DNA from: Clostridia bacterium
Lineage (GTDB): Bacteria; Bacillota; Clostridia; Christensenellales; CAG-138
Assembly (NCBI GenBank): GCA_017428025.1
Contig: JAFRRO010000028.1
Span: forward strand, 3,304 to 67,303
DNA: 64,000 nucleotides
Direction of reading: 5' to 3'
Shown here: positions 5,633 to 35,901 of the stretch, one piece after another
How the letters are laid out: each line of letters begins with the position of its first letter
Position numbering within the stretch: the first letter of the stretch is position 1
Made by a program: the position numbers and the translations under genes
The notes under the pieces: generated by a model
Told to the model about the DNA's origin: nothing
The model's database searches: none
Seen by the model: only the letters and a program-made list of their open reading frames with translations

Positions 5633-6526
5633 TCACTCCTGCGCGATCTCCTGCTTGAGGCATTCGCGCATGTACAGGATGCAGTATTCCTCGAAGGATT
5701 CTTCGTCCTCGGCGCTCGAAAGGAGCGCGCGCAGGGCGCGGTAGGGGATCACGATGTCGCCGGTGCGGTCGAGACGGCTGTTGGTCGCCGCCATGTGCAT
5801 GATGACCTCGCGCATGTCCTTTGCGTTGTACGCCTCGAAAAAGGACTTGCTCGCCTTGTTGCGGTAGCGCTCGCGCGAACCGTTGTGCAGGACGCGCAGC
5901 ACGAACGCGATGCCGTAGGTCAGCGGCAGAAACGCCGAGAGCGAGATCCATTCCGGAGCGCGCGTGAGAAAGCCGTAGAAGTCGTTCCAGCCGCCGCGGT
6001 CCTCGCCGACGATCTTGACGAGCGTGTAGTAGACGCAGGCGTAGATGAACACGGGGATCAGGCAGAAGAACGTCGTCGTCCGCTTGATGCGAAGATCCTT
6101 CAGGACGAAGCAGAACGTGACGATGGACAGGATCGGGCAGAGCCCGTGCAGGAAGAAGCGCGAGCCGGTGAAGATCAGCACAAAGCCCTTGACCGGCGCG
6201 AGCACGAACAGCGAAATCAGAAACGTCAGCGACAGCGCGGTCGTCGCAACGAACAGCACGATCACGAGCCAGTCCGGCAGGCGGAAATACTGCCTGCGGA
6301 TGCCGTCGATCGCGTACGGAACGACCAGAAACATCGAGACGCCCATCAGGATGTTGGAATTGACGGTGAACATGCAGAACGTCCGGATCCCCATGTGGTC
6401 GAAGTTCTCGTCGTACAGCGTCGTGAGATTCATGACGACGCCGACGCACACGCAGATCACGACCGCCGCCGAAAACAGCAGCGTTATCACGCATTTGCTC
6501 CGATTGATCTTTTGAATACGGTTCAT
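5633..6526 (-). CDS. Multi-pass membrane protein with a cytoplasmic C-terminal tail; paralog of 48853-49788 (possibly Pr6Pr/FAR-17a-like)
   Basis: I chose the ATG at 6526 because it has GGGAGGA/GGGGGA upstream. It shares motifs with the second copy: PYA(I/V)DG(I/L)R, LP(D/R)W, LH..CP(I/L)LSI and GED.GGW.D. Confidence 0.7.
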   Translation of the reverse strand: MNRIQKINRSKCVITLLFSAAVVICVCVGVVMNLTTLYDENFDHMGIRTFCMFTVNSNILMGVSMFLVVPYAIDGIRRQYFRLPDWLVIVLFVATTALSLTFLISLFVLAPVKGFVLIFTGSRFFLHGLCPILSIVTFCFVLKDLRIKRTTTFFCLIPVFIYACVYYTLVKIVGEDRGGWNDFYGFLTRAPEWISLSAFLPLTYGIAFVLRVLHNGSRERYRNKASKSFFEAYNAKDMREVIMHMAATNSRLDRTGDIVIPYRALRALLSSAEDEESFEEYCILYMRECLKQEIAQE

Positions 6527-6683
6527 ATCGATCCCCCGATCCTCCCGATAGTGCGGCAGTTCCATCCATTTACCATAGTATATAAATCGGCGTCTGCTGT
6601 CAAGTGGCGGGTGAACTTCGCGAATCGGCGCGGATTGTGAAGTTTGAGTGGCAATTTGCCAAGACCTGTGTTATAATGGTAGT

Positions 6684-7955
6684 ATGAAAAGAGTTTGGTG
6701 TCTGCTGCTGATCGCATTCGTCTTGCTCGGCTGCGTAGGGGAGGACGCGCCGGTTGTTCTGATGCCTTCGCCCGTTGCGGAGGCAACGCCCGTCGAAACA
6801 CAGGCGTCCGCCGCGCCTGCGCCGACGCCCGCGCCGACCGCCGTCCCGACCGCAGCGCCGACCGAAGCGCCGACCGCGACGCCGACGCCGTCGTTTGAGG
6901 ACCGGCTGCGGACGTACATCGACACGATGACGGTCGAGGAAAAGATCGGGCAGCTCTGCATGTTCGGCTTCTCCGGCACGCGGGAGATCAGCTCGGAGTT
7001 CAAGGCGATCCTCCGGGAATACCGCATCGGCAACGTGATCCTCTACGGGCAGAACATGGCGCGCACCAATTCGGACGGCGGCTTTTCGCAATGCCGGAAG
7101 CTCAGCGACAGCGTGCGAAAGGCGAGCGACAGCGAAATCCCGCTTTTGATCAGCACCGACGTCGAAGGCGGCAGCGTGACGCGCTTCAAATGGAAGAAAT
7201 CGCTTTCAAGCGCGCGAACGCTCGGCAAGAAGAACGACACGGACCTTGCCGAGGAGCAGTTCCGCTACATTGCGGAAGGGCTTTTGTCCGCCGGCATCAA
7301 CACCGACCTTGCGCCGTGTCTCGACGTGTGCAGGGAACCGGAGGACAGCTTCCTCGGCAAGCGCATCATCTCCGCGGATGCGGAGCGCGCGGCGCGCATC
7401 GGCGTCGCCTGCATCGAAGGACTGCACGACGGCGGGTGCCTGTCGATCGTCAAGCACTTCCCCGGTCACGGCGCGACGAACACCGATTCGCACGAGTCGA
7501 CGCCGACGGTCAACAAATCGCTCGACGCCCTGTCGCTCTATGAGCTTGTGCCGTTCGCCGAAGGCCTGAAATCCGCGGACGGCGTCATGGTGGCGCACAT
7601 CCGGTATCCGAAGATCGACGAGGAGCACATCGCAAGCCAGTCGGAGGTGTTCATCACCGAGATTCTGCGCGAATCGTTCGGCTTCGACGGCATCGTCATG
7701 AGCGACGATTTCCGCATGGCGGGGCTCCGCAAACAGACGTCGCCGAAGGACGGCGCCGTGCAGTTCATTCTGGCGGGCGGCGATCTCATTCTGTGCGGGG
7801 CGAATCACACATACCAGAAGCAGATTCTGGCGGGACTGTACGCCGCGGTCGAAGACGGAACGATCTCGGAAGCGCGGCTCAACGAAAGCGTATACCGGAT
7901 CCTCTCGGCGAAGATTCGCGTCACGGGATGGGATCCGTTTGAAAATGAGGATTGA
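6684..7955 (+). CDS. Glycoside hydrolase family 3 beta-N-acetylhexosaminidase (NagZ-like) lipoprotein
   Basis: It has a lipobox signal peptide (MKRVWCLLLIAFVLLGC), a Pro/Thr/Ala linker and the GH3 motif KHFPGHG. The ATG at 6684 is preferred over the GTG at 6648. Confidence 0.88.
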   Translation: MKRVWCLLLIAFVLLGCVGEDAPVVLMPSPVAEATPVETQASAAPAPTPAPTAVPTAAPTEAPTATPTPSFEDRLRTYIDTMTVEEKIGQLCMFGFSGTREISSEFKAILREYRIGNVILYGQNMARTNSDGGFSQCRKLSDSVRKASDSEIPLLISTDVEGGSVTRFKWKKSLSSARTLGKKNDTDLAEEQFRYIAEGLLSAGINTDLAPCLDVCREPEDSFLGKRIISADAERAARIGVACIEGLHDGGCLSIVKHFPGHGATNTDSHESTPTVNKSLDALSLYELVPFAEGLKSADGVMVAHIRYPKIDEEHIASQSEVFITEILRESFGFDGIVMSDDFRMAGLRKQTSPKDGAVQFILAGGDLILCGANHTYQKQILAGLYAAVEDGTISEARLNESVYRILSAKIRVTGWDPFENED

Positions 7956-7966
7956 GGGAGAAACAA

Positions 7967-9454
7967 ATGGCAAGGATCGGATTTGACAACGACAAATACA
8001 TCTCGATGCAGTCGCAGAAGATTCTCGAACGCATCGAAAAGTTCGGGGACAAGCTGTATCTGGAATTCGGCGGCAAGCTCTTCGACGACTACCACGCCTC
8101 GCGCGTGCTGCCGGGCTTCGCGCCGGACAGCAAGATCCGCATGCTCGAACAGCTCAGGGACAGCGCCGAGATCATCATCGCGATCCACGCGGGCGACATC
8201 GAGCACAACAAGGTGCGCAACGATCTGGACATCGCCTACGACCGCGAGGTTCTGCGGCTGATCGACGCGTTCCGGAGCAAGGGGCTGCTCGTTTCGGGCG
8301 TGGTCATCACGCGGTATCACAATCAGGCGGCGGTCGATGCGTTCCAGGAAAAGCTCGAACGCCTCGGCGTCAAGGTGTATCTGCACTATCCGATCGCGGG
8401 ATATCCGCAAAATCCGTCGCTGATCCTGAGTCCGGAGGGGTTCGGAAAGAATCAGTTCGTGGAAACGACGCGTCCGCTCGTCGTCGTCACCGCGCCCGGT
8501 CCCGGCAGCGGCAAGCTTGCGGTGTGCCTCTCGCAGGTCTATCAGGAGTACACGCGCGGCGTGCGCGCGGGCTACGCGAAGTTCGAAACGTTCCCGATCT
8601 GGAACCTGCCGGTTACGCATCCGGTCAACCTCGCCTATGAAGCGGCGACGACCGACCTCGACGACGTGAACATGATCGATCCGTTCCATCTCGAAGCGTA
8701 CGGCAAGATGACGACGAACTACAACCGCGACGTCGAATCCTTCCCGGTGCTCAATACGATGTTCGAGCATATCTACGGCACCTCGCCGTACAAATCGCCG
8801 ACCGATATGGGCGTCAATATGGCGGGCTTCTGCATCACCGACGAAGAAGCGGTGCGCAAAGCCGCGTGCAGCGAAATCATCCGCCGCTATTACAACGCGG
8901 CGTGCGCGTACAAGCGCGGTCTGATCGGACGCGAGCAGATCGACAAGGCGGAGTTCATCATGACACGCGCGGGCGTGACGGTCGCCGACCGTCCGGTCGT
9001 GGCGGCGGCTCTGGCGCGCGCCAGGGAAACCGACGGTCCCGCCATGGCGATCGAGCTTGAGGACGGCACGATCGTAACCGGCAAGAACGGCACCATGATG
9101 GGCGCCGCGGCGGGCGCGCTGATGAACGCCATGAAGGCGCTCGCCGGCATTCAGTCCGACATCGATCTCATCGCGCCGATCGTGCTTCAGCCGATCCGCG
9201 AGCTCAAAACCAATCATTTCGGCAGCGAAAACCCGCTGCTGCACAGCGACGAACTGCTGTATGCGCTTTGCATCTGCGCAACCACCAACCCGACCGCCGC
9301 GCGCGCCATGAAGGCGCTCGACGCGCTCAAGGGACTCGAGGCGCATTCGAGCGTGATGCTCGCTCGCGTGGATCTCGAGGTCTACCGCCGTCTCGGTCTG
9401 AACCTGACCTGCGAACCGCAGCGCAGGACCAACCGGCTGTTCGACAAGAACTGA
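7967..9454 (+). CDS. DUF1846 (UPF0371) family protein
   Basis: The N-terminus MARIGFDNDKYISMQSQKILERI..LYLEFGGKLFDDYHASRVLPGF is typical of UPF0371. GAGGGAG precedes the ATG at 7967. Confidence 0.85.
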   Translation: MARIGFDNDKYISMQSQKILERIEKFGDKLYLEFGGKLFDDYHASRVLPGFAPDSKIRMLEQLRDSAEIIIAIHAGDIEHNKVRNDLDIAYDREVLRLIDAFRSKGLLVSGVVITRYHNQAAVDAFQEKLERLGVKVYLHYPIAGYPQNPSLILSPEGFGKNQFVETTRPLVVVTAPGPGSGKLAVCLSQVYQEYTRGVRAGYAKFETFPIWNLPVTHPVNLAYEAATTDLDDVNMIDPFHLEAYGKMTTNYNRDVESFPVLNTMFEHIYGTSPYKSPTDMGVNMAGFCITDEEAVRKAACSEIIRRYYNAACAYKRGLIGREQIDKAEFIMTRAGVTVADRPVVAAALARARETDGPAMAIELEDGTIVTGKNGTMMGAAAGALMNAMKALAGIQSDIDLIAPIVLQPIRELKTNHFGSENPLLHSDELLYALCICATTNPTAARAMKALDALKGLEAHSSVMLARVDLEVYRRLGLNLTCEPQRRTNRLFDKN

Positions 9455-9461
9455 TCCTGCA

Positions 9462-10496
9462 ATGAAGCGCGCGTTCTGCATCTTTCTGTTGCTTTTGCTG
9501 CTGACCGGCTGCGCCGAGCCTGCGCTCGCGCCGGTCGCTTCGGCGACCGACGAACCGGACACGATCGTGGTGGTCCGGACCGAAGCGCCGACGCGCGAAC
9601 CGACCGCCGCGCCGACCGATACGCCGAAGCCGACCGAGACGCCCGTGCCGACCGACACGCCGGAGCCGACCGAAGCGCCGACGCCGACGCCCGAACCGGA
9701 ACCTTTCCGGCTGCGCGCGATTCCCGACGGCATGCGGCCGCGGCAGGGATATCAGATCACCGGACTTGCGGGCGTGCTGTTCTGCGGGGCAAAGCAGACC
9801 TATGCCGCGTACGGCGCGTTCGGCAAGGCGGAGCCCGCGTTCTATCCGTGCGACGAAACCGGCGCGGTGGAACCGTACGCGGAACCGATCGAAACCGTGA
9901 TGATGGTGCCGAACTATACGCCGACCGACGCGCCGGAGAAGGACGGCGAAGCGCTGCTCGTGGTGTATCTCGGTTCGCAGTGCGTTGTCTCCTACGAGGG
10001 ACAGGACGGCGAATGGGTGGTGCAGCGCATCATGATCTGCTCGACCGGACGCAGAAAGCACGAGACGCCGAAGGGCAATTACAAGATCTCCAACCGTTAC
10101 GACTACAAGATCCTCGGCACCGGCGAAACGAACTGCTACGGCTTCTGGGCGAGCCGGTTCAGCCATCACCTTCTGTTCCACTCGGTGCCGATCAGCGTGG
10201 AGGCGGGGCGCGACAAGGACAAGGCGCACCGGATGTGCGACATGCACAAATACGAAAAGCTCGGCACCGTCGCGTCCGACGGATGCGTCAGGCTGACCGT
10301 GATCGACGCGAAATGGATCTATGACTGGTCCGAAACCCGCAAGGTCGCGGTGCGCATCGTCGGCGATTCCGGACCGACGCCCGAAAAGCCGCCCGCCGTG
10401 ATCTGGGAGGAGCCGTACACCGACAAAAACGGCTACGGCTGGGATCCGACCGATCCCGATCCGGACAATCCGTACCTGCAGAAAAACGAAGAATAA
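9462..10496 (+). CDS. L,D-transpeptidase (YkuD-domain) lipoprotein
   Basis: It has a lipobox (LLLTGC), a long (E/A)PT-rich linker, and a conserved His followed by SDGCVRL (catalytic Cys motif) near the C-terminus. Confidence 0.8.
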   Translation: MKRAFCIFLLLLLLTGCAEPALAPVASATDEPDTIVVVRTEAPTREPTAAPTDTPKPTETPVPTDTPEPTEAPTPTPEPEPFRLRAIPDGMRPRQGYQITGLAGVLFCGAKQTYAAYGAFGKAEPAFYPCDETGAVEPYAEPIETVMMVPNYTPTDAPEKDGEALLVVYLGSQCVVSYEGQDGEWVVQRIMICSTGRRKHETPKGNYKISNRYDYKILGTGETNCYGFWASRFSHHLLFHSVPISVEAGRDKDKAHRMCDMHKYEKLGTVASDGCVRLTVIDAKWIYDWSETRKVAVRIVGDSGPTPEKPPAVIWEEPYTDKNGYGWDPTDPDPDNPYLQKNEE

Positions 10497-10525
10497 AACT
10501 TCCTTCATTTCTTCTAAGGAGCATT

Positions 10526-12250
10526 ATGGGAAAGCTCAGGGCATATATCCGGCCGTACATTCTCTATATCGCTTTCACCATGCTGGTTAAGCTCGGCGGC
10601 GCGGTCGCTGAGCTTTTTGTGCCTTATTTTATGGAACGCATCCTGCGCGAAGGCGTGGTTCCCGGACAGCAGAACCGCATCCTGATTTACGGCGGCGCGA
10701 TGCTGCTGTGCGCCGCCGTCTGCCTTGCGCTGAACATCACGGCGAACCGCATGTCGGCGCAGAGCTCCGGCAAGATCACGCGGAAGATTCGTTTCGATCT
10801 CTTTGAAAAGCTGAACACGCTGTCCGCGCGGCAGATGGACGAGCTCACGCTGCCGTCCGCCGAATCGCGGCTCACGAGCGACACCTATCGCGTCAACGAA
10901 TTCCTTGCCCGCGGGCAGCGGCTCGGCATCCGCGCTCCGATCCTGCTGGTCGGCGGCGTCTTTATGATGCTGACGATGGACGCGAAGCTGGCGCTCGTGC
11001 TTGTCGCGCTGCTGCCGATCATCGCGCTGACCGTGTGGATCATCACGAAAAAGAGCATTCCGCTCTATACGAAGGAGCAGGGCGAGCTCGACGACATGGT
11101 GCGCGTGGTGCAGGAGAACGTGACCGGCGTGCGCGTCATCAAGGCGCTGAGCAAGACGGACTATGAGCGCGAGCGGTTCGCCCGCGTCAACGAGGCACTG
11201 TGCGCCACCGACACGAAGGCGGGCGCCGTGACGGCGATCAACAATCCCGTTGCCTCGCTGGTGCTGAACCTCGGTCTGACGGCGGTCGTCGTGGTCGGCG
11301 CGTACCGCGTGCTCGGCGGAACGACCGGCGCTTCGGTCATCGTCGCGTTTCTGCAGTACTTCATCATGATTCTGAACGCCATGCTCGGCGTCACGCGCAT
11401 CTTCATCATGGCGTCGCGCGCGCAGGCATCCGCGCTGCGCGTGGCGCACGTACTGGAGCTCAAAAAGGACCTCGAACCGCGCGAAGCTTCAAACGAACCG
11501 GAGCCGGAAGCGCCGCATATCGCGTTTTCGGACGTCTCCTTCTCCTACACCGGCATCGGCGAAAACCTGTCGCATCTCTCGTTTGCGCTGAAACGCGGAC
11601 AGACGCTCGGCATCCTGGGCGCGACGGGCTCCGGCAAGAGCACGGTCGTGAACCTTCTGATGCGCATTTACGACGTCGATTCCGGTTCCGTCCGCATCGA
11701 CGGACGCGACGTGCGGGAGTATGAGAAGAACACGCTGTCCGCGAAGTTCGGCGTCGTATTCCAGAACGATTTCATCCACGAGGGCACGATCCGCGACAAC
11801 ATCCGCTTCTTCCGCGACATCCCGGACGAGGCGATCGAGCGCGCGGCGGTCGACGCGCAGGCGGCGGAGTTCATCGCCGAAAAGGACGGCGGCATGGACG
11901 CGGCGGTGTCGATCCGCGGAAACAACCTGTCCGGCGGGCAGAAGCAGCGGCTTCTGATCGCGCGGGCGCTGGCGGGCGATCCCGAGATCCTGATCCTCGA
12001 CGACGCATCGTCCGCGCTCGACTATCGCACCGACGCGGCGCTTCGAAAGGCGCTTCGCGCGCGCGGCGCGGTCACGACGATTCTGATTGCGCAGCGCATC
12101 TCCTCGGTCCGGCACGCCGATCTGATCCTCGTCTTTGCGGACGGCAGGGTGATCGGCGCGGGCAAACACGACGAGCTGCTCGAAACGTGCGCCGAATACC
12201 GGCTCATTGCGGAGTCCCAGATGGGCACCGGAGAGGAGGCGGACGCATGA
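10526..12250 (+). CDS. ABC exporter, fused permease/ATPase (heterodimer partner 1)
   Basis: It has six N-terminal TM helices, Walker A GATGSGKST, signature LSGGQKQR and Walker B ILILDDA. Confidence 0.9.
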   Translation: MGKLRAYIRPYILYIAFTMLVKLGGAVAELFVPYFMERILREGVVPGQQNRILIYGGAMLLCAAVCLALNITANRMSAQSSGKITRKIRFDLFEKLNTLSARQMDELTLPSAESRLTSDTYRVNEFLARGQRLGIRAPILLVGGVFMMLTMDAKLALVLVALLPIIALTVWIITKKSIPLYTKEQGELDDMVRVVQENVTGVRVIKALSKTDYERERFARVNEALCATDTKAGAVTAINNPVASLVLNLGLTAVVVVGAYRVLGGTTGASVIVAFLQYFIMILNAMLGVTRIFIMASRAQASALRVAHVLELKKDLEPREASNEPEPEAPHIAFSDVSFSYTGIGENLSHLSFALKRGQTLGILGATGSGKSTVVNLLMRIYDVDSGSVRIDGRDVREYEKNTLSAKFGVVFQNDFIHEGTIRDNIRFFRDIPDEAIERAAVDAQAAEFIAEKDGGMDAAVSIRGNNLSGGQKQRLLIARALAGDPEILILDDASSALDYRTDAALRKALRARGAVTTILIAQRISSVRHADLILVFADGRVIGAGKHDELLETCAEYRLIAESQMGTGEEADA

Positions 12251-14022
12251 AGCGGAACGAAACCTCCCGATCCTCGCTGAAACACCGCGGCAGGCTTCTG
12301 AAGCGCATGTGGCAGTACATGGGCAGAAACCGGCTGATGATCGTGCTTGCGGTGCTGCTTTCCGCGGCGTCGTCACTGCTGTCGCTGTACGGTCCCAAGC
12401 TGTCCGGTCAGGCGATCAACGCGATCACCGATCCGAACGGCATCGATTTCAAGGTCGTTTTGACCTGCGCCGCATGGATGGCGGGCTGCTACATTCTGTC
12501 GGCGGGATTCTCCTATCTGCTGCAGTACGTGATGATCCGGCTTTCGCGCCGCGTTGCCAAACAGATGCGGCACGACATCTTCGAAAACCTCACGCGGCTG
12601 CCGGTCGCGTACTTCGACAACCGCCAGGTCGGCGACATCGTCAGCGTCATCACCTACGACGTCGACACGGTCAACCAGTCGCTGGCGGCGGACGCGCTGC
12701 AGATTCTGCAGAGCACGATCACCGTCGTCGTCTCGCTCGTCATGATGCTCTCGATCGCGCCGGTTCTGGTGCCGGTGTTCGCGGTGACGATCCCGATCAC
12801 GATCCTGTTCACGCGATGGCTTGCCAACCGCGTGCGTCCGATGTTCCGCTTCCGCAGCAAGAAGCTCGGCGAGCTGAACGGCTTTGTCGAGGAGATGCTC
12901 GGCGGGCAGAAGACCGTACGCGCCTACGGACGCGAGGACGCGGTGCAGGAACGCTTTGAGGAAAAGAACGTCGAGGCCGTCAACGCCTATACGCGCGCCG
13001 AAGCGAACGGCACCGTCACCGGTCCTTCGGTCAACTTCATCAACAACGTGTCGCTGGCGCTCGTGTGCGTGATCGGCTCGTGGCTGTTCCTGAAGGGCCG
13101 CATCCGGCTCGGCGATCTGTCGAGCTTCGTGCAGTATTCGCGCAAGTTCTCCGGTCCGATCAACGAGGTCGCAAACATCATCGCCGAGCTGCAGAGCGCG
13201 TTCGCGGCGGCGGAGCGCGTGTTTGCGCTGATCGACGCGGAACCGGAAGCCGCCGACGCGGCGGACGCGAAGGAGCTTGCCGACGTGCGCGGAGAGGTCG
13301 AGATCGACCGCGTGAACTTCTCCTATGACAAGGTCCGCCCGATCATCACAAACTTCAGCCTCGAAGCGCCGCCCGGCTCGCTGATCGCGATCGTCGGACC
13401 GACCGGCGCGGGCAAGACGACGATCATCAACCTTCTGATGCGCTTCTACGACGTCGACAAGGGCGAGATCCGCGTCGATCAACAGCCGATCCGCTCGCTT
13501 ACGCGCGCGTCGCTTCGAAAGGCGTACGCGATGGTGCTGCAGGATACGTGGCTGTTCTCCGGAACGATCTTCGACAACATCGCCTACGGCAAGAAGGACG
13601 CGACCGAAGCGGAGGTCGTCGCCGCGGCGAAGGCGGCGCACATCCACAGCTACATTTCACGCCTCAAGGACGGGTATCAGACCGTGCTGTACGACAACGG
13701 CGCGGGCATTTCGAAGGGACAGAAGCAGCTGCTGACGATCGCGCGGGCGATGCTTCTGGACGCGAACATGCTGATCCTCGACGAAGCGACGTCGAACGTC
13801 GACACGCGCACCGAGCAGCATATCCAGGCGGCGATGCGCGAACTGATGAAGAACAAGACCTGCTTTGTGATTGCGCACCGCCTTTCGACGATCCGCAACG
13901 CGGACAACATCCTCGTCATGCGCGGCGGACAGGTCGTGGAGCAGGGTACGCACGATCAGCTGATGCAGCGGCCGAGCTTCTATCGCGAGCTCTACCGCGC
14001 GCAGTTCGAAAGCGCGGAATAA
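12247..14022 (+). CDS. ABC exporter, fused permease/ATPase (heterodimer partner 2)
   Basis: The ATG at 12247 overlaps the upstream stop (ATGA). It has Walker A GPTGAGKTT, signature ISKGQKQL and Walker B MLILDEA. Confidence 0.9.
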   Translation: MKRNETSRSSLKHRGRLLKRMWQYMGRNRLMIVLAVLLSAASSLLSLYGPKLSGQAINAITDPNGIDFKVVLTCAAWMAGCYILSAGFSYLLQYVMIRLSRRVAKQMRHDIFENLTRLPVAYFDNRQVGDIVSVITYDVDTVNQSLAADALQILQSTITVVVSLVMMLSIAPVLVPVFAVTIPITILFTRWLANRVRPMFRFRSKKLGELNGFVEEMLGGQKTVRAYGREDAVQERFEEKNVEAVNAYTRAEANGTVTGPSVNFINNVSLALVCVIGSWLFLKGRIRLGDLSSFVQYSRKFSGPINEVANIIAELQSAFAAAERVFALIDAEPEAADAADAKELADVRGEVEIDRVNFSYDKVRPIITNFSLEAPPGSLIAIVGPTGAGKTTIINLLMRFYDVDKGEIRVDQQPIRSLTRASLRKAYAMVLQDTWLFSGTIFDNIAYGKKDATEAEVVAAAKAAHIHSYISRLKDGYQTVLYDNGAGISKGQKQLLTIARAMLLDANMLILDEATSNVDTRTEQHIQAAMRELMKNKTCFVIAHRLSTIRNADNILVMRGGQVVEQGTHDQLMQRPSFYRELYRAQFESAE

Positions 14023-14088
14023 TTGCTTGCAACAGATACGCGAAGCATGCTATGCTATTATATATTATTATGATAAGGGGGTAGTAAA

Positions 14089-14721
14089 ATGTATTGTCAA
14101 AAATGCGGTAAGCCGCTGCAGGACGGCGCCTCGTTCTGTATCGGCTGCGGCGCTCCGGTCGATCTGCCGGACGTCAAGCCTGACGTTGTCCGGTCGAAAA
14201 AACATGCGAGCCTGACGGTCCCTATGATCTTTGCGGCGATCACTATGACGCTGTTTCTGGTCAGTTGGATCGGCAGTCTGTCAAGCGTGTCCTATTTCTT
14301 CAGTCATATGCGTGAGGTGCCGGTCTTTGCGCTGTTTGCGATTGACAACATCGTATATGTGCCGATCTGGATCGTCGGTTCACTGTGCATCTTCCTGTTC
14401 TGCCTGACCGAACGGAAGAGCGGCAAAACGACGCTCCTCGGGATCGGCTGTCTGATCCTTGCATTTGTCTGCGCCTATTCGCTTCTGTACCGTCTGGTCT
14501 ATATCGTCATCGTACTGGCGGCGGACGGCGTCAGCCCTACGGAAGCGTTCCGTATGTCGTTCACCGTCAAGGGATCTCTCCGTCAGCTTCTCTGCAGCGC
14601 CGGCGCGGTTCTGTTCCTGATCGAGGCGATCTCGGCGTTCAAGGGCAAGGTCAATAAGATCATCGGGATTCTTGCAGCATGCGTCGTTCTGGCGCTTGCA
14701 CTGCTTACCATTACGTTTTGA
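14089..14721 (+). CDS. Zinc-ribbon-domain membrane protein
   Basis: It has an N-terminal MYCQKCGKPL..CIGCGAP zinc ribbon followed by about five hydrophobic helices. The SD is AAGGGGG. Confidence 0.75.
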   Translation: MYCQKCGKPLQDGASFCIGCGAPVDLPDVKPDVVRSKKHASLTVPMIFAAITMTLFLVSWIGSLSSVSYFFSHMREVPVFALFAIDNIVYVPIWIVGSLCIFLFCLTERKSGKTTLLGIGCLILAFVCAYSLLYRLVYIVIVLAADGVSPTEAFRMSFTVKGSLRQLLCSAGAVLFLIEAISAFKGKVNKIIGILAACVVLALALLTITF

Positions 14722-16976: not shown

Positions 16977-17167
16977 TGCGATTTCCCCCTATAATATGAT
17001 TGATTATACCATAGCGCAAGCGAAGTTGTCCATCGAATGTCCGCAGGGTTTACAAAATATCATATAAAACCGCCTGTTTCGCAGATGCGCCGCGTGTGCG
17101 GCGGCGAAAAATATATCCTTGCTGTCCCATAAAAGGACTTTCCATTTTCCGGTACTTCTGGTATACT

Positions 17168-17190
17168 TGTTATATTCGAACATACGTTCG
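17168..17190 (+). promoter_or_regulatory. Extended -10 promoter (TGtTATATT) immediately followed by a perfect LexA/Cheo box CGAACATACGTTCG
   Basis: TG at 17168-17169 and TATATT at 17171-17176. CGAAC-N4-GTTCG at 17177-17190 matches the Firmicute LexA consensus exactly. It lies 28 nt upstream of the ATG at 17218. Confidence 0.7.
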
Positions 17191-17217
17191 ATTATTCCGC
17201 ATGAAAGGAGCAGGAGA

Positions 17218-17601
17218 ATGGATTTGAAAGAATGGAAGAAGCTTGCGGAACAGGAAGTGTACCGGTATCGGGACAATCAGGCGTATGTGCGCGGCGTTCT
17301 GGACGGCGGCGGCAGCAGCGACAACATCAAGCTTAAGCAGCGCGCCCGCTGGGTGCTTGCGGTGGACTATGTGAAGGAGTATCTGAAACGGACCGATCCG
17401 CAGAAAGCCGCGGTGTTTTCGCAGCTGTTCGGGCTCGACCGTCCGCTTCGCCGTGCCGAAGAACGCCGCTCGATCGTTTCGCTGAGCATGGAACGGAACA
17501 TATCGCCGACCACGCTGTACAAATGGAAGTCGGAGATGCTGTCTCTCGTACTGCTCGCCGCCGCGCAGACCGGCGCGCTGCGATTGTACTCCATCGATTA
17601 A
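17218..17601 (+). CDS. Small HTH protein resembling phage late-gene activators (RinA/ArpU / sigma-70 region-4-like)
   Basis: 127 aa with GGAG 7 nt upstream of the ATG. The C-terminal HTH-like segment is VSLSMERNISPTTLYKWKSEML. The family assignment is from pattern memory only. Confidence 0.55.
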   Translation: MDLKEWKKLAEQEVYRYRDNQAYVRGVLDGGGSSDNIKLKQRARWVLAVDYVKEYLKRTDPQKAAVFSQLFGLDRPLRRAEERRSIVSLSMERNISPTTLYKWKSEMLSLVLLAAAQTGALRLYSID

Positions 17602-17609
17602 GAGGAAAG

Positions 17610-17634
17610 AGGGTGCGGCTTTCGCACCCTTTTC
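17610..17634 (+). terminator. Intrinsic terminator
   Basis: AGGGTGCG-gcttt-CGCACCCT is followed by TTTCC. Confidence 0.7.
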
Positions 17635-17810
17635 CATATCCGCACGATCGGTTAACCTTTCATCCGCGTGCATGGAAAACATGCAATATACAATCCTTAA
17701 ACCGAGAACATACGTCGTTTTGCGTGTAATTCCGTTAATCTTTGAACGATTTATGAATTATTCATTGAGTATTCAACCCGCCTATACCGCATATGCAGGG
17801 CAGGAAAATC

Positions 17811-17881
17811 GGTGGATAACTCCGAAAAATCCGACGATACGTGCCTCCGATTGTGGATAACTGTGTGGACGATGTGGAAAT
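17811..17881. promoter_or_regulatory. Cluster of DnaA-box-like motifs
   Basis: TGTGGATAA (17852-17860) is the perfect reverse complement of TTATCCACA. GGTGGATAA (17811-17819) has 1 mismatch. TGTGGACGA (17864-17872) and TGTGGAAAT (17873-17881) have 2 mismatches each. All four are in the same orientation. Confidence 0.5.
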
Positions 17882-18063
17882 GTATGCGATTATACACCCG
17901 CATTTGAAGGAATGAATATTCAACCGCACCGTGCAGTCCTGTCGAAAACCGCCGAATCGCGGGGACTTGCGCGGTTCGCCGCCGGATCCCCTCTATGCAT
18001 GAAGGTTTCCGGTCGATGAATAAGCGGTATGCTCCTCCGCTGCAACCGGTTTGCAAACAAAAA

Positions 18064-20319: not shown

Positions 20320-20348
20320 AAATGCAAAAAACGGGGCGCGCGCCCCGT
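20320..20348 (-). terminator. Terminator downstream of thiT
   Basis: ACGGGGCGC/GCGCCCCGT is a palindromic stem (20331-20348). On the minus strand it is followed by TTTTTTG. Confidence 0.8.
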
Positions 20349-20360
20349 TTTGTCCGTCGT

Positions 20361-20963
20361 TTATGCGGCTTTGTCGTCCGCCTTCGCGAGCTGTTCGCCG
20401 CGGAAGTACTTCTCCAGCGGCTTGTAGATCAGCATGGCGACAAGCTCGGTCACGACCAGCTCCGCAAGCATGTACCAGCCGTTGTACAGCGCCGAATAGA
20501 TCCACGGGCTCGTCATCTTCATGCCCATGAACTCCTCGGGCATCCAGACGCCCCAGATCCATGCGCCGCTGATGAGGTGGCAGCAGAAGCGCAGCGCGAA
20601 GGTCACGAGAATGCCGAGCGCAACCGCCTTGCGGTCCTTGCCGAAGATGCCGGACAGTCCGATGACCGTGTAGGCGATCACATAGTCCAGCAGCACGATG
20701 CCCGCGCCCATCAGGAAGCTTGTCGCATAGCCCACGTTGTCCAGGCCGAGGATCATCTGAATGAGGCTGTAGGTGAACGCCGTCAGAACGCCCCATTTCC
20801 AGCCGTAGCGATGGCTGATCAGAATGAGCGGCAGCATGCTGACGATCGTGATTCCGCCGCCGAACGGCAGATCGATCTTGACAATGCTGCACACGGTTGC
20901 GACCGCGATCATCAATGCGCTCTCCACGAGCTGCAACGCCGTGGTTTTCTGTTTCTTTTCCAT
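20361..20963 (-). CDS. thiT: Energy-coupling-factor transporter S component for thiamine (ThiT)
   Basis: 200 aa from the ATG at 20963, with a GGGAGGG SD. It has six TM segments and the typical ThiT N-terminus (LVESALMIAVATV..LPFGG). A TPP riboswitch lies directly upstream. Confidence 0.85.
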   Translation of the reverse strand: MEKKQKTTALQLVESALMIAVATVCSIVKIDLPFGGGITIVSMLPLILISHRYGWKWGVLTAFTYSLIQMILGLDNVGYATSFLMGAGIVLLDYVIAYTVIGLSGIFGKDRKAVALGILVTFALRFCCHLISGAWIWGVWMPEEFMGMKMTSPWIYSALYNGWYMLAELVVTELVAMLIYKPLEKYFRGEQLAKADDKAA

Positions 20964-29233: not shown

Positions 29234-29265
29234 GCCGCCCGCAGGGGCGGCTTTTCTCGTTTTTT
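29234..29265 (+). terminator. asnS intrinsic terminator
   Basis: GCCGCCC-gcag-GGGCGGC is followed by TTTTCTCGTTTTT. The T-tract overlaps the stop codon (29264-29266) of the last phage-module gene on the opposite strand. Confidence 0.85.
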
Positions 29266-30091
29266 AGGCGGCGGGAAACTGCGCCATCAGCTGCTCGAAC
29301 GCGGCGCGTCCGAGGCTGCTGCGGATCTGCGCATACGACTGCGCGTAGGCGCCTTCGCCGGCATAGAACTGTCTGCGCTGTTCGGGCGAAAGTCGGGACA
29401 GCAGGTTCGCAGCCGTGCGGTAGTCGACGTCCGTACTTTCGGCGGGCTGCGCGCCGGACATCATCGCGTCGATCAGCGGATACCTTCCGTCCTGCGCTTC
29501 ACTCTGCGCGCCTGCACGGCCGCCGCCGGAGCGGTGATACGCGCTGTACAGCGCCTGTGCCGCCGCTGCCGCCTTTTCGCGGGCACGGTTGATCTGCTCC
29601 GCGTTGAATTTGTCGACGTCGATCTTCTGTTCCTGCTGCGCGCGCATCGCGTCATACAGCTGTCCGGCGAGCGTCGATGCGTAATCGCTTTCGAGATCGT
29701 CGACGTCCTGCGCTTCGCTGCGGAACGCGCGGTCCTTGACGTCGGTCACATAGGTGCTCGTGCCCATGCCGCGCGCCAGCGCGTCGGCGTCGAGCTCCGC
29801 GTTCTGCCGCTCGGTCCGCTCTTGCCGCGAGCGGATCGCCTGTTCGTACGCCGGACGCAGCCAGTTCGAGATCGTGTCGCGCAGCACGTCCTCGTCGAGC
29901 GGCGTGAACGACACGGTTTCCGGCAGATACGTCTTGAGCATCTCCGAAAAGATCGATTCGAACGACGGCGCGTCGCTGCCGCTGCCGCCGCCCGATCCGC
30001 CCGTCTGTGTCCGCCCGCTCTGCCTGCGCGTCAGCGGATCCTTGATCGGCGGTGTCAAAAGTCTGATGGGTGGGATTCGTACCATTCTCAT
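29264..30091 (-). CDS. Phage-module hypothetical protein (275 aa; Gly-rich N-terminus, Ala/Gln-rich helical body)
   Basis: Its ATG overlaps the upstream stop (ATGA). No recognisable motif was found. Confidence 0.6.
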   Translation of the reverse strand: MRMVRIPPIRLLTPPIKDPLTRRQSGRTQTGGSGGGSGSDAPSFESIFSEMLKTYLPETVSFTPLDEDVLRDTISNWLRPAYEQAIRSRQERTERQNAELDADALARGMGTSTYVTDVKDRAFRSEAQDVDDLESDYASTLAGQLYDAMRAQQEQKIDVDKFNAEQINRAREKAAAAAQALYSAYHRSGGGRAGAQSEAQDGRYPLIDAMMSGAQPAESTDVDYRTAANLLSRLSPEQRRQFYAGEGAYAQSYAQIRSSLGRAAFEQLMAQFPAA

Positions 30092-30285
30092 TCTCCTTCC
30101 GTAAGTTCGGCAAGTGCCGATTCGAGTTCCGAGAGCTTGCTGTACAGAAGCTCCAGGTTCTGGTTCAGATTGTTTTCGTTCTGAGCGACGCTGCTGTCGT
30201 ATGCGTCCCGATCCTCGTCTTTTTGGGGCATTCTACCGAGATAGATCGGAAACAGCGCCTGCATGCCGGTCGGGATGTATGCCAT
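30088..30285 (-). CDS. Phage-module small protein (65 aa, C-terminal coiled-coil)
   Basis: AAAGGAGG precedes the ATG at 30285. It is coupled to the downstream gene. Confidence 0.55.
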   Translation of the reverse strand: MAYIPTGMQALFPIYLGRMPQKDEDRDAYDSSVAQNENNLNQNLELLYSKLSELESALAELTEGE

Positions 30286-30296
30286 ACGCGCCTCCT

Positions 30297-31727
30297 TTAC
30301 ACCGGACGGCGCTGCACGTCAAAGAGCAGCGACGCCTTCGCGTCCAGACGCATCGGCTGTCCGTTCACGTTCGAGAACGACAGGCGGAACACGCGCCCGA
30401 CGCCGCGCAGCGGGATCTCCGTCACCGAATGCGGCGTATCGGAGAAATGCGCCTGCGTCTGATATGCGCCGCCGTTTGTCAGCACGCGCACCAGCACGTC
30501 CCCCTCGCCGCTTGCGGTCAGCATCAGCAGCGTCTTGTTCGCTTCCTTGTGCCCGAAATCCTGCACCGGCATGTCCCACCACGCCTCGATCCGGTCGCCG
30601 TCGTAGTCGGGACTGTCGTCGAACCGCACCAGCTTGCCCGTCGACGTCAGCGCATACAGCTCGCCGGACAGCGACTGGATATCCGCAAGCAGGAATCCGG
30701 TGCGGAGCATATAGGTCCCGCGCAGAAGGTCGTATTCGATCATCGTGTCCGCGTACGAAACGACGTCGCAGGAGCGAAACGCGAAGTACAGCCGGTCGCC
30801 GCACGCCGCGGATACCGTCCCGTCGAGCTTCGCTTCCTTCAGAAGCGGCAGCAGCGCAGCGGCATTCGCCGGACGGCGCACCGTTTGCCCGTCGTAGCAG
30901 CAAAGCCCGCCGTCGGACAGAAAATACAGCCGGTCCGTGTATCGCACGATCGCCGTATGCACCGGCATCTCGTACGCCGCGTCGATCGCGGTGATGCGGA
31001 AATTCGACGGACGGTCGCCGAGCAGGCGGAACACGTTGTTTCTCGTGAAGATCAGCAGCTGATTCGACAGCGCCGCCAGTCCGGTGATCGGATCGTCGCT
31101 GACGCCGATATCCACAAACCCGCCGGAGACGTTCTCGCTCGCGGGATCCTGCCGCCAGTCGTCGATGCCGCGGTCCGCGCCGGGCGCTTTGCTCCAGTAG
31201 AGGCGGCTCGGCGCAAGCATGTTGCCCGCCGCAAACAGCCGTCCGAAGTACAGTTCCGCGCAGCTGACCGGCACATCGCTGAGCTTTTCCGCCGAGCCGA
31301 ACGGCGTGATTTCGTGCGTCAGCGGGTTGTAGAGGATCGGCTGCCCGTTGCCGTACACGATCAGCAGGCGGTCCCGGCTCTCGATGCGGACCGGCAGAAA
31401 ATCGATCCGATCCGCCGAAAGCTCGTTCGCAAACGTGTGGATCTGCCGCCATTCACGCTGCGCCGAGCGGTAGTAGTACAGCGCATCCCGCGACACGGCG
31501 AGATACCGCACGCCCTGCTCGGTCGGATACAGAAACATGCGCAGCAGCGGCGTCTGTGCGGAAAGGATGCCCGAAGCCGCGCGGGAAAACCCGCCCGCCG
31601 TGCGAAGATCGCCGGAACGCGTGTCCATGTTGCACGCGTCGGGGCTCTGATCCGCGCTCATCAGCGCTTCCGAAAGGTCCATGCGCACGCCGGAGAACGC
31701 GGGCAGCATGCCGTAGGTATATGCCAT
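30297..31727 (-). CDS. Phage-module structural protein of unknown role (476 aa, repetitive beta-rich pattern)
   Basis: GGAGGG precedes the ATG. Its size and position after the connector-like gene suggest a neck or tail-hub component, but this is an inference only. Confidence 0.6.
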   Translation of the reverse strand: MAYTYGMLPAFSGVRMDLSEALMSADQSPDACNMDTRSGDLRTAGGFSRAASGILSAQTPLLRMFLYPTEQGVRYLAVSRDALYYYRSAQREWRQIHTFANELSADRIDFLPVRIESRDRLLIVYGNGQPILYNPLTHEITPFGSAEKLSDVPVSCAELYFGRLFAAGNMLAPSRLYWSKAPGADRGIDDWRQDPASENVSGGFVDIGVSDDPITGLAALSNQLLIFTRNNVFRLLGDRPSNFRITAIDAAYEMPVHTAIVRYTDRLYFLSDGGLCCYDGQTVRRPANAAALLPLLKEAKLDGTVSAACGDRLYFAFRSCDVVSYADTMIEYDLLRGTYMLRTGFLLADIQSLSGELYALTSTGKLVRFDDSPDYDGDRIEAWWDMPVQDFGHKEANKTLLMLTASGEGDVLVRVLTNGGAYQTQAHFSDTPHSVTEIPLRGVGRVFRLSFSNVNGQPMRLDAKASLLFDVQRRPV

Positions 31728-31739
31728 ACGCGTCCCTCC

Positions 31740-32294
31740 TCAATACCGGTTCAGGATCGCATAGCCCGCGGGCTCGTCCATGTCCATCCGGAGTCTGCGC
31801 TTGCGCCGTTCGTACAGCGCCATGACCGTGTTCGCGTGGTTCAGTCCCTGCGCGTCGTTGTGCATCTCGAACCGCGCCACCATGTACAGCACGATCAGCG
31901 GATGGCAGGCGGACGGCAGCTCCGGCACGTCGGTCGGCTGCGACAGCGCGTTCGGCAGATACCGGTAGACCACGTGGACCGGACCGTCCTGTACGCCCTT
32001 CAGATGCAGCATCATAGTATTCGGTCCGTAATAGAACGGCATGCGCAGTCCGCCGCGCTCCACGCCGAGCACCTTGGAAACGGTGCGCGGCAGCGTCGCA
32101 AGATCGATCGTCCCGTTTGCGATCGCCGCCGGATCGCGCCGCCACGGGCGCAGGGATCTCGTGAGATCGTCGATCGCGTCGTTCGCAAAGCCGGTCAGCT
32201 TCTCCCGCCACAGCGGCAGCGCCGCCGTGTCCGACGGATGCTCGAGCTCGGCAAGCGCCAGATTGATCAGTTCCGTGAGCGTCATGCCGATCAC
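31740..32294 (-). CDS. Putative head-tail connector/adaptor protein (184 aa)
   Basis: It sits after the capsid gene. The N-terminal helix (LTELINLALAELEH) resembles gp6-type connectors. The start is GTG at 32294 or ATG at 32285. Confidence 0.5.
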   Translation of the reverse strand: MIGMTLTELINLALAELEHPSDTAALPLWREKLTGFANDAIDDLTRSLRPWRRDPAAIANGTIDLATLPRTVSKVLGVERGGLRMPFYYGPNTMMLHLKGVQDGPVHVVYRYLPNALSQPTDVPELPSACHPLIVLYMVARFEMHNDAQGLNHANTVMALYERRKRRLRMDMDEPAGYAILNRY

Positions 32295-32545
32295 CCGATC
32301 TTTCTGCCGCCGACGTCCCTGTACGCCGAGACCATGCGCGCGCCTTCCTGCAGCGCGGCGCGGCTTTCGCGGATCACCGCCGCGATCCTTTTGGGCACCT
32401 CCACGACCTTATCCGTCGGAATCCGGAAGGCGACGCCGTTGACCGCCCCTTCCAGGAACGGACCGACGGACTCGCTCGGCAGGTAGATCGAAACGGTCGG
32501 TTCCTTCTGTTCGTTTACATTCGTTTTCTTGCTTTCTTCCTTCAT
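32291..32545 (-). CDS. Phage-module small protein (84 aa)
   Basis: It has a good SD (GGAGAAAGGAGAA) and lies directly downstream of the capsid gene. Confidence 0.55.
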   Translation of the reverse strand: MKEESKKTNVNEQKEPTVSIYLPSESVGPFLEGAVNGVAFRIPTDKVVEVPKRIAAVIRESRAALQEGARMVSAYRDVGGRKIG

Positions 32546-32626
32546 GCGGTTTCTCCTTTCTCCTTGCGTCGTCGGCGCAACCCGTCGGGCCGCCCGTACC
32601 GGCGGCCCGTATCGTCCTTTCGGCCC

Positions 32627-33823
32627 TTACTCGCTGACGCCGTGCTCGATGCGCACGATCCAGAGCGGGTTCAGAACCTTTGCCGCGTATGCCGCGACCT
32701 TCGCGCCGACCGTCGAACGCTGGTTGAGCGGATCTGCGCTGCCTTCGGAGCCGCAGGGCTTGATGATCGTCTCGATCGTGCCGGAGCCGTCGATGTCGAT
32801 GACGCCGTACGCGTCCGCGCCGAACACCAGCGTTGCGTGGACGTCCGCCTGCTTGTGCGTGCCGGATTCCTCGCCTGCGTCGGTCGTGTAGACCGGATCG
32901 TTGATGCGATACGTGATCGCCGTGTCGATCGTGAGGACGTTGGTCTCCGCGTTGTACGCCGTGATCTCGTATTCGGAACCGTTGATCGTGATGACGTTGC
33001 CCGCAACCAGATACGCCTTTTCACGGTCGCTCGGGACGGTCTTGAGCTCGATGCTGTTCGTATTCGTGCCCGCCGTCTTGGCGCGGTTGTAGAAGGACTG
33101 GCGATAGACCTTCGCCTCGGTCGCTTCGACGAATACGACGCCGAACAGACGCCCGATCTCGCCGGAATAGATCTGCTCCGCATTGCTGTACTTGGAAACA
33201 TCCTGCCAGAGCGGATCGTTCTGCAGATCGTAGGTCGCGTCGGGCGAGCAGATGCAGACGAAGTGCGGACGGCGCACGCTGCCGTCTGACGCGGTGTTGA
33301 ACATGCGCGCCTTGTTCTTCTTGAGCGTGCGGACCGCCTTGCGGATCTCGGTCACGGTCAGAACGTCTTCGGAGCCGATTTCGCTGCGGTCCTCCTTGCC
33401 GTTCGCGTACTGCACGTTGGTCGTCGCGCACATCGCGTCGCGCGTTACCCACTCGATGACGGTGCCGAGCTGTTCGCCCAGAAGCTCCGCGGAGTCGGCG
33501 ATCACCTCGTCGTATGCGGTCATGTCGAGCAGATCGGAGATCTCGACGTACGCGCCGTACTGCGCGACCTCGGCTTCGACCTTGGACTGCGAAAGCACCT
33601 GTCCCGCGGGCGTGATGCCCTCCTCGAGCGTCAGGCTCGCGACGTCGGGCGTGAACAGATCGTACTTGCGGAACTCCACGCGCTTGCCGCCGTGACGCGG
33701 AATGCTGCGTTTCTGTCCGAACTCTGCGTGCACGAGCCGCGTCTTGGCGGTTTCGAGCAGCTTCTTGTCATAGAATTGCTTATTGAAATAAGCGGTGTTG
33801 GCTGTGTTGATCGTCGTGTTCAT
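32627..33823 (-). CDS. Major capsid protein, N4-gp56 family
   Basis: YFNKQFYDKKLLETAKTRLVHAEFGQKRSIPRHGGKRVEFRKY...LEEGITPAG...QYGAYVEISD matches the N-terminal signature of this family as I recall it. The SD is AAAGGAGA. Confidence 0.8.
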   Translation of the reverse strand: MNTTINTANTAYFNKQFYDKKLLETAKTRLVHAEFGQKRSIPRHGGKRVEFRKYDLFTPDVASLTLEEGITPAGQVLSQSKVEAEVAQYGAYVEISDLLDMTAYDEVIADSAELLGEQLGTVIEWVTRDAMCATTNVQYANGKEDRSEIGSEDVLTVTEIRKAVRTLKKNKARMFNTASDGSVRRPHFVCICSPDATYDLQNDPLWQDVSKYSNAEQIYSGEIGRLFGVVFVEATEAKVYRQSFYNRAKTAGTNTNSIELKTVPSDREKAYLVAGNVITINGSEYEITAYNAETNVLTIDTAITYRINDPVYTTDAGEESGTHKQADVHATLVFGADAYGVIDIDGSGTIETIIKPCGSEGSADPLNQRSTVGAKVAAYAAKVLNPLWIVRIEHGVSE

Positions 33824-33841
33824 GAATTCGATTCTCCTTTC

Positions 33842-34261
33842 TCAGATGTGGACGCGTCTGCCGTTTCTTGCGGCGTTGCGGTACTGCTGTTCGAGCGCGC
33901 GGAACGATTCGCCGGACATCGCCATGTAGTTCGGCGTCGCCGAGACGGCGCGGTCGGTGCGCTGGCTTTTCGGCAGGGCCCTCTGCGCCTGCATCTTTTC
34001 GCCGAGATGCGCCTTTGCGTTCTGTTCGGCTTCCTCCGCACGGCGCTCCGCCGCATAGATGCGGACGGCCGCCTTCGGTTCGAACTCCCTGAGAAGCTCC
34101 GCAAACGCGCGGTCCTTCACGGCTGCCGCGAGATCAAAGCCCCCCGGCAGCGCGCCTTCGCGCTCCATTTCGACCAGTGCGTTCGCCGCTTCGACAAAGG
34201 GATTTTCCTCCCGTTCGACCGGTTCCGGCGCGGTCTCTGCCTGTTGTTTTCTGAAGATCAT
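33842..34261 (-). CDS. Putative scaffolding protein (139 aa, acidic/helical)
   Basis: It lies between the portal and capsid genes. Its ATG at 34261 overlaps the portal stop (ATGA), and the sequence is Ala/Glu-rich. Confidence 0.5.
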   Translation of the reverse strand: MIFRKQQAETAPEPVEREENPFVEAANALVEMEREGALPGGFDLAAAVKDRAFAELLREFEPKAAVRIYAAERRAEEAEQNAKAHLGEKMQAQRALPKSQRTDRAVSATPNYMAMSGESFRALEQQYRNAARNGRRVHI

Positions 34262-35877: not shown

Positions 35878-35901
35878 ATCGTTTTCCTTTCCTTTTTCGT
35901 G

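Follow-up and report, generated by a model that had tools for sequence, protein, structure and literature searches.

What is a lone regulator gene of phage type doing on a bacterial chromosome with a perfect LexA box across its promoter? The question is raised by a 64,000-nucleotide stretch of a Clostridia genome (GenBank assembly GCA_017428025.1, contig JAFRRO010000028.1) – the whole of which we call the window – and centres on a gene of 127 codons at 17218-17601 and the palindrome at 17177-17190 that precedes it. An original prediction, made from the letters of the window, took the palindrome for a LexA operator, likened the protein to the activators of phage late operons, and speculated that its target might be a phage head module some 12 kb away. 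The core observation, a regulator gene with a LexA box on its promoter, is confirmed at the level of sequence and strengthened by phylogenetic footprinting. We consider it probable, if well short of certain, that the gene stands alone, has been conserved by vertical descent and belongs to the SOS regulon: a damage-gated regulator, derived from phage, in a clade of gut and rumen Clostridia.

The putative LexA operator and its conservation

The gene and its signals are arranged as follows.

17123-17138, + strand: upstream motif TGTCCCATAAAAGGAC, of the form GTCC-N8-GGAC, immediately 5′ of the -35 position and near-invariant in all orthologous promoters
17139-17167, + strand: promoter found by promoter scan, with a weak -35-like TTTCCA (17139-17144), a 17-nucleotide spacer and the extended -10 element TGgTATACT (17159-17167)
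17168-17176, + strand: second, overlapping -10-like element TGtTATATT, seen in the sequence; species-specific and unconserved in orthologous promoters
17177-17190, + strand: putative LexA (Cheo/SOS) box CGAACATACGTTCG, covering the expected transcription start and kept in 25 of 25 orthologous loci
17205-17210, + strand: ribosome-binding site AAGGAG, 7 nucleotides before the ATG; GAAAGGAG is conserved in orthologues
17218-17601, + strand: the gene, an open reading frame of 127 codons plus stop, encoding a basic, all-helical helix-turn-helix protein
17610-17636, + strand: GC-rich hairpin GGGTGCG-N5-CGCACCC followed by TTTTCC, a likely terminator (the scan flags 17610-17630)

The exact pattern CGAAC-N4-GTTCG occurs once in the window, as CGAACATACGTTCG, inside a 240-nucleotide intergenic region and with the ATG 27 nucleotides further on; the perfect Cheo box of the original prediction is thus real and the only one of its kind here. 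The prediction had also placed the box directly behind an extended -10, TGtTATATT, where it should block the polymerase. That element is present and abuts the box, but the -10 that orthologues conserve is TGgTATACT, 9 nucleotides upstream of the box, and TGnTATACT is invariant among the orthologous promoters. With either -10 the expected transcription start is covered by the box. The likely terminator directly after the stop codon, equivalents of which lie 3′ of the gene in orthologues, marks the gene as monocistronic.

Membership of a Gram-positive LexA regulon is recognized by a Cheo box in the promoter region, by an operator that overlaps the -10 element or the start site, and by retention of that operator upstream of orthologues. 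All three are found at the 127-amino-acid gene, where the box follows TGnTATACT by 9 nucleotides, abuts TATATT and accompanies the gene from species to species. CGAACATACGTTCG is, on these grounds, a functional-looking putative LexA operator overlapping the promoter.

The strength of the case for retention comes from a comparison of loci. A word-based search returned 15 relatives at 50% identity or more, none with a Pfam domain; their contigs, together with a scan of one genome per GTDB species, yielded 25 orthologous loci (20 sequences being distinct, with protein identities that range from 69% to 38%) from metagenome-assembled genomes of uncultured Clostridia, Clostridiales or Christensenellales, mostly of rumen and gut. 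The box stands about 40 nucleotides before the start codon in every one of them, exact in 24 and with TGAAC in the remaining one; its arms are invariant, while the 4-nucleotide spacer and the flanks vary. The whole promoter follows a common plan at every locus – CTGTCCCATAAAAGGaC, some 20 nucleotides, TGnTATACT, 8-9 nucleotides, CGAAC-N4-GTTCG and the ribosome-binding site.

The family extends further than these orthologues. A profile search of 1.84 billion representatives gave 90 proteins at E<=1e-3, most of which are 140-190 amino acids long, the insert that separates the N-terminal helices from the helix-turn-helix being longer. Loci of one such distant subfamily (about 35% identity to the window protein) were taken from a metagenome scan. 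At 20 of them CGTACAAACGTTCG, a box with one mismatch, lies 3 nucleotides after TATAAT or TACAAT; 2 further loci have an exact box, 1 has CAAACATATGTTTG, and two other distant members carry one-mismatch boxes directly after their -10. Of the 28 loci scored in the distant subfamily, 24 have an exact or one-mismatch box. By chance, a box with no more than one mismatch would be expected in about one per thousand such 30-nucleotide windows, which argues that the predicted operator is a property of the whole family: a LexA-type operator is, to judge from these alignments, conserved throughout it.

Three lesser observations belong here. The core 10-mer of the box, GAACATACGT, has a second copy at 17706-17715, 528 nucleotides downstream, which we considered as a second LexA site and rejected: the AT-rich stretch around it is variable and unconserved among orthologues, and the copy is probably due to chance. 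At loci L040-L059 of the distant subfamily an extra conserved half-site, GCGAAC, lies between the LexA-like box and the ribosome-binding site, about 20 nucleotides before the start (ATGCGAACACAGGAGG). The upstream motif of the distant subfamily also differs, TTGTACA...CCACA being conserved there instead of TGTCCCATAAAAGGAC.

The 127-amino-acid protein and its probable kinship with phage activators

The nature of the protein is the second issue. The late operons of Gram-positive phages are switched on by activators of the Ltr superfamily, which comprises RinA, ArpU, LtrA/sigma70_r4, LtrB/DUF1492 and LtrC (PMC3152322, PMC3753634), and for which a basic character is a stated trait (PMC3753634). 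The window protein has an isoelectric point of 9.7. A confident AlphaFold model built on 67 family sequences (pLDDT 94, pTM 0.87) is all-helical, with six helices laid out as an N-terminal hairpin, a long helix and a helix-turn-helix at residues 86-118. Structural comparisons of the model returned the following.

PDB, best meaningful matches: sigma region 4, namely SigL region 4 in 3hug and sigma-28 in 1rp3; target-normalised template-modelling (TM) score about 0.7, root-mean-square deviation about 3 Å, E about 1.5
BFVD (viral) matches: full-length proteins of 130-165 amino acids annotated as phage transcriptional activator/regulator, DUF1492, sigma70 region 4 or ECF sigma; TM score 0.65-0.70, E 6e-3 to 0.1

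Evidence of descent comes from the more distant members of the family. When the 67 family sequences were scanned against PHROGs, 6 matched phrog_36 and 3 matched phrog_248; the matches are weak (E 4e-6 to 3e-3) and co-linear over the full length. These are the PHROG families of RinA itself: RinA of phage 80alpha, taken from its GenBank record, scores 7.7e-39 against phrog_36 and 6.4e-11 against phrog_248. What marks Ltr and RinA proteins, small size and basic character combined with helices in the N-terminal part and a DNA-binding domain of the sigma-region-4 type at the C-terminus, is seen here too, with modest scores. Other searches returned little. Pfam gave HTH_Tnp_1 only, below threshold (E 0.0024, 18.5 bits against a cut-off of 24.1); the PHROG and NCBIfam scans of the window protein gave nothing relevant; and the family profile found among PDB sequences only a TetR helix-turn-helix at E 0.04.

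Several results weigh against the reading of this gene as a LexA-controlled regulator of phage descent, and they are best considered together. An exact box is no rarity in 64 kb: among 100 dinucleotide-preserving shuffles of the window 27 contained at least one match (mean 0.34), and one-mismatch boxes in the window number 10 against 6.1 expected. A single exact box is insignificant alone, and it is thus position and conservation that carry the case for an operator. Neither lexA nor recA is present in the window, and two loci of the family (L064 and L065) have no recognizable box. As to the protein, the hidden Markov model search by which the original prediction was to be judged came out negative: across Pfam, PHROGs and NCBIfam the window protein has no match to RinA, ArpU, DUF1492, DUF722, sigma70_r4, phrog_36 or phrog_248 at E<=10. 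Foldseek E-values against the PDB are around 1, and an hhalign comparison of the family with the single RinA sequence gave a probability of 11.8%, with the helix-turn-helix correctly aligned. DNA binding, and activation rather than repression, are deduced only from resemblance to the class.

Taken with the fold matches and the PHROG matches of its relatives, the failure of the protein's own model searches means that it is RinA-like in fold and remote homology and not by membership. Of the predicted assignment to the RinA/ArpU/sigma-region-4 class, then, the fold (in both PDB and BFVD) and the placing of distant members in phrog_36 and phrog_248 survive; a direct model match does not. The protein is not a demonstrable member of any named family. 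It probably works like the Ltr/RinA class, and probably descends from it.

An orphan gene and its proposed role

The gene had been described as standing apart from any phage gene, and this proved correct over a wide sample: no phage gene lies within 10 kb on either side of the regulator in any strain or species examined. Its flanks, in its own species and in relatives, consist of a divergent pair of genes for a membrane protein and a leucine-rich-repeat protein and, on the other side, of genes for CAT, NlpC/P60, a thiamine transporter and signal peptidases. One has to go 20 kb, and to the opposite strand, to reach the closest terS-like gene. Members of the distant subfamily have other housekeeping neighbours (starch synthase, LPG-synthase C, a VCA0040-like protein and YgjP), and synteny is conserved within both subfamilies. 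Three scans of IMG/VR returned one weak match, the family being nearly absent from viral contigs.

One family member does reside in a real prophage. Its gene (P0227, locus L081) belongs to the early region, where a Bro-N/ANT gene directly precedes it and the replication genes follow, and a separate sigma70_r4 protein is encoded further downstream in the same prophage. Its presence there suggests that the family has phage roots, the putatively LexA-controlled members being host genes. The same prophage holds an exact Cheo box of its own, CGAACATCAGTTCG (7470-7483 of L081), between the integrase and HTH_3 repressor genes and upstream of an open reading frame of 51 codons, which may be a LexA-controlled gene of the antirepressor type.

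These observations can be joined into a mechanism, of which the LexA steps are deduced from the sequence and from what is established about LexA in Gram-positive bacteria. LexA, bound to the Cheo box that overlaps the transcription start of the extended -10 promoter, would keep the gene off. DNA damage would lead, through RecA-stimulated self-cleavage of LexA, to its transcription as a monocistronic message. The protein so made, which is small, basic and helical, and whose C-terminal half is predicted to share its fold with sigma region 4 and with the DNA-binding domain of the Ltr/RinA superfamily of late activators in phages, would then bind DNA and switch on one or more promoters elsewhere in the genome. 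In short, the host would have retained a transcription regulator of phage ancestry, which would serve as a second, damage-gated tier of control.

How does such a gene compare with what is known? Damage-gated control of phage-derived functions is familiar enough, and SOS-gated activation of phage-derived particles is represented by PrtR/PrtN of the pyocins, by Xre/Xpf of PBSX and by the LexA requirement of the gene transfer agent RcGTA with its activator GafA. The two-tier logic of these systems, in which a damage signal acts through a small activator on a structural operon elsewhere, is the logic proposed here. They differ in two respects: damage is relayed either indirectly or by a cleavable repressor that is not LexA, whereas LexA control of the 127-amino-acid gene is predicted to be direct; and the link between activator and operon is proven in them and speculative here.

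The Ltr superfamily offers a closer likeness in the protein and a more distant one in its setting. Distant relatives of the window protein match the PHROG families of RinA, and expression of the gene, like that of the Ltr genes, is predicted to depend ultimately on damage. Direct hidden Markov model matches are lacking, as described, and this is a conserved chromosomal gene and not a gene of a phage; it is found neither at the end of a phage early cluster nor immediately upstream of terS, and it is not under the control of cI. LexA is predicted to repress it directly, whereas in Ltr phages the route runs through a repressor of the cI type. Direct repression by LexA of a phage-derived function has been described for operon I of the Staphylococcus aureus pathogenicity islands (SaPI; Ubeda et al. 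2007, as cited in PMC3753634). The two cases share a LexA box on the promoter of a phage-derived function outside a complete prophage; they differ in that LexA there controls packaging genes on a mobile island and here, by prediction, a lone regulator gene at a fixed chromosomal site.

A conserved chromosomal gene of the phage-activator type placed directly under LexA was not found described in the literature that we searched on Ltr activators and on the SOS meta-regulon of the gut. For the SOS regulon of uncultured Clostridia from gut and rumen, a family that is without a Pfam, NCBIfam or PHROG model, and which has nonetheless a very consistently conserved putative LexA operator, would be a clean new entry.

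Candidate targets and competing explanations

If the protein is an activator, what does it activate? The most obvious candidate is the head module of the original prediction, and here the picture has changed. The module is an operon of ten genes, encoding in order a TerS-like protein, TerL, portal, a 139-amino-acid protein, an N4-gp56-type capsid protein, an 84-amino-acid protein, an SU10 adaptor, and proteins of 476, 65 and 273 amino acids.

29264-37544, - strand: ten-gene operon resembling FpGTA I, candidate target; its 5′ end is truncated at 37518 in the window strain
35902-37233: terminase large subunit (PHROG match)
34258-35877: portal (PHROG match)
32627-33823: major head protein (PHROG match)
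30297-31727: virion structural protein (PHROG match)

FpGTA I of Faecalibacterium is a ten-open-reading-frame operon for a podovirus-like gene transfer agent that packages about 8.5 kb of random host DNA, and packaging of a similar kind has been reported in Ruminococcaceae, Oscillospiraceae and Christensenellaceae (PMC12946183). Judged by gene content and order against the published description, 29264-37544 agrees with it: ten co-oriented open reading frames that stand alone in the chromosome among housekeeping genes, in the order TerS-like protein without an obvious DNA-binding domain, TerL, portal, a scaffold-sized protein, capsid and proteins of short-tailed phages. The window operon differs in belonging to a lineage of unclassified Clostridia known from metagenome-assembled genomes and not to Faecalibacterium prausnitzii; and no regulator is described for FpGTA I, so that the 127-amino-acid gene has no known counterpart there. 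The ten-gene unit is kept across many Clostridia and recurs in at least five other genome contexts, each time without integrase, replication or lysis genes and with different housekeeping neighbours, and its capsid, portal and TerL are 70-89% identical in other species. This is probably a gene-transfer-agent operon and not the debris of a prophage.

The original prediction had taken it for a head-only module whose control region had been lost. The loss is real in the window strain, where homology to sister strains ends at 37518, and other DNA stands in place of the promoter region and the initial ~45 codons of gene 1. The replacing DNA, from 37518 to about 44500, has a G+C content of 0.46-0.52 against ~0.60 elsewhere and carries a relaxase fragment together with MatE and LysR genes: the operon's promoter and 5′ end have been replaced by a mobile element, and only in this strain. 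Loci L031, L033 and L034 are intact at the 5′ end of the operon, with CLIPPER and PhzF genes in place and the 140-amino-acid gene 1 whole, and the module as such is a conserved operon and not a remnant. Where it is intact, the upstream region has a terminator first. Next comes a promoter whose -10 is TATGAT or TATGCT and which lacks a good -35; in L031 it lies at 5955-6205. A conserved leader, CAGCGAAAGGCAGGGAGGCA, is the third part.

Because the module is a conserved operon and not debris, the idea of a split architecture – in which the 127-amino-acid protein acts in trans on the operon, and the production of particles is damage-gated through LexA – becomes sharper than when it was first put forward. 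Activators of the Ltr/RinA class act on operons led by terS (PMC3152322, PMC3753634). No copy of the operon comes with a regulator gene; the operon's conserved, insulated upstream region has a promoter without a good -35, as would fit dependence on an activator; regulator and operon are both conserved chromosomal traits of related Clostridia, 12 kb apart in the window; and no regulator of FpGTA was reported in the literature searched, which makes the protein a concrete candidate. On this hypothesis LexA would directly gate an orphan Ltr-like activator that is the missing master switch of the podovirus-like, FpGTA-type gene transfer agents of gut Clostridia, and DNA damage in one cell would lead to the packaging and release of random chromosomal DNA across gut and rumen anaerobes.

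We looked for three traces of such a link: a LexA box, a common motif and an adjoining family member. None was found. No LexA box stands upstream of the operon in L031, L035 or L036. The operon's upstream regions and the regulator's promoter have in common only ribosome-binding site, leader and runs of A; across six operon upstream regions there is no convincing repeat or common motif; and TGTCCCATAAAAGGAC, of which the window holds a single copy, does not occur in the operon locus L031 (operon at 6172-14560). A tblastn search within 7-10 kb on either side of the operon in 17 other loci detected no family member. The operon lies in a different chromosomal context in each species. In the window strain it is promoterless and has lost about 45 codons of gene 1, yet regulator and box are intact. 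Finally, particles of FpGTA have been seen in late stationary phase and not after DNA damage (PMC12946183). We found nothing that connects the operon with the regulator, and thus no cis-evidence in favour of the split architecture. That the protein activates this operon, we consider unlikely; the same doubt applies to the split architecture in general and to the notion of a master switch for agents of the FpGTA type.

A second explanation looks to mobile elements. The protein might be a domesticated regulator from a phage early region that acts on resident prophages or other mobile elements, for instance by helping or blocking their induction during the SOS response, with targets that vary from strain to strain. 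Trans-acting phage factors controlled by LexA, such as Tum of coliphage 186 and the Gifsy antirepressors, are a known theme, and the sole prophage-borne member that we saw, P0227, sits in an early region beside an antirepressor-like Bro-N/ANT gene. SaPI operon I, as cited in PMC3753634, would be a further instance of the theme. Against this, the family is nearly absent from IMG/VR, and gene and operator are kept at a fixed chromosomal site across deep divergence, which argues for a conserved target in the host and not for variable mobile elements. We regard action on mobile elements as improbable, more so than action on the operon. A stand-alone host regulator under the predicted control of LexA remains the reading that we prefer.

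A third possible target lies directly behind the gene.

17679-18004, strand not assigned: 326-bp ultraconserved non-coding element rich in DnaA boxes; neighbour of the gene, candidate only

Among 21 distinct locus sequences that were compared (the window included), 19 have the element, which lies 80-400 nucleotides beyond the gene, has a constant length of 326-328 nucleotides and is more conserved than the coding sequence of the regulator. It contains TTATCCACC at 17811 and a perfect TTATCCACA at 17852, exactly 41 nucleotides apart, besides a tandem TGTGGACGA and TGTGGAAAT, TTATGCACC, and several ATGCA and TGAATATTCA motifs; DnaA boxes number 3-5 at up to one mismatch against 0.3 expected, and 8-13 at up to two mismatches against ~3.2 expected. 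A structured RNA was considered and rejected: an Rfam search gave no match at E<=1, RNAalifold yields about -14 kcal/mol over 330 nucleotides on either strand with 0-1 covarying pairs, and local hairpins and duplexes are inconsistent between species. These negative results lead us to read the element at the level of DNA. A small open reading frame was likewise rejected, no frame being open in all species. The element looks like a cluster of DnaA boxes, and could be an origin, a site that titrates DnaA or a DnaA-regulated promoter region. As to an origin at 17.8 kb, no dnaA lies nearby, and neither gene orientation (+ strand genes to the left, - strand genes to the right) nor GC skew in the window is origin-like. 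In most species the element is followed at once by the promoter of a gene for a lipoprotein or metallophosphatase, a gene that the window genome does not have.

Does the regulator act on this neighbour, modulating the availability of DnaA or the initiation of replication during DNA damage? B. subtilis is known to combine LexA and DnaA in responses to replication stress, and the adjacency, the constant length, the conservation in excess of the coding sequence and the enrichment in DnaA boxes are all suggestive. But the element was not found beside genes of the distant subfamily, which keep their LexA box; the adjacency may therefore be a matter of synteny within one lineage. The element could be the regulatory region of the downstream lipoprotein or metallophosphatase gene, and none of its motifs recurs in the regulator's own promoter. 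We think it very improbable that this is what the protein does.

Least credible of all is that the palindrome is no LexA operator but a chance match or the site of another dimeric repressor, perhaps the protein itself: an exact match turns up by chance in a fair share of 64-kb stretches, lexA is absent from the window, and the left arm in the distant subfamily is consistently CGTAC instead of CGAAC, but the conserved bases are exactly the arms of a Cheo box, with a free 4-nucleotide spacer and in a repressing position, at some 50 loci, and sites predicted from gut Firmicute metagenomes are bound in vitro by LexA of B. subtilis (PMC3998124).

A minor observation concerns the flank of the regulator in a sister strain. 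At L030 (13118-15528) an insertion of three genes, encoding proteins of 69, 273 and 223 amino acids, separates the gene for NlpC/P60 from that for the thiamine transporter, at a distance of 3 kb from the regulator; its position corresponds to about 20335-20385 in the window. By size alone, the first two recall the last genes of the operon at 29264-37544 (65 and 273 amino acids).

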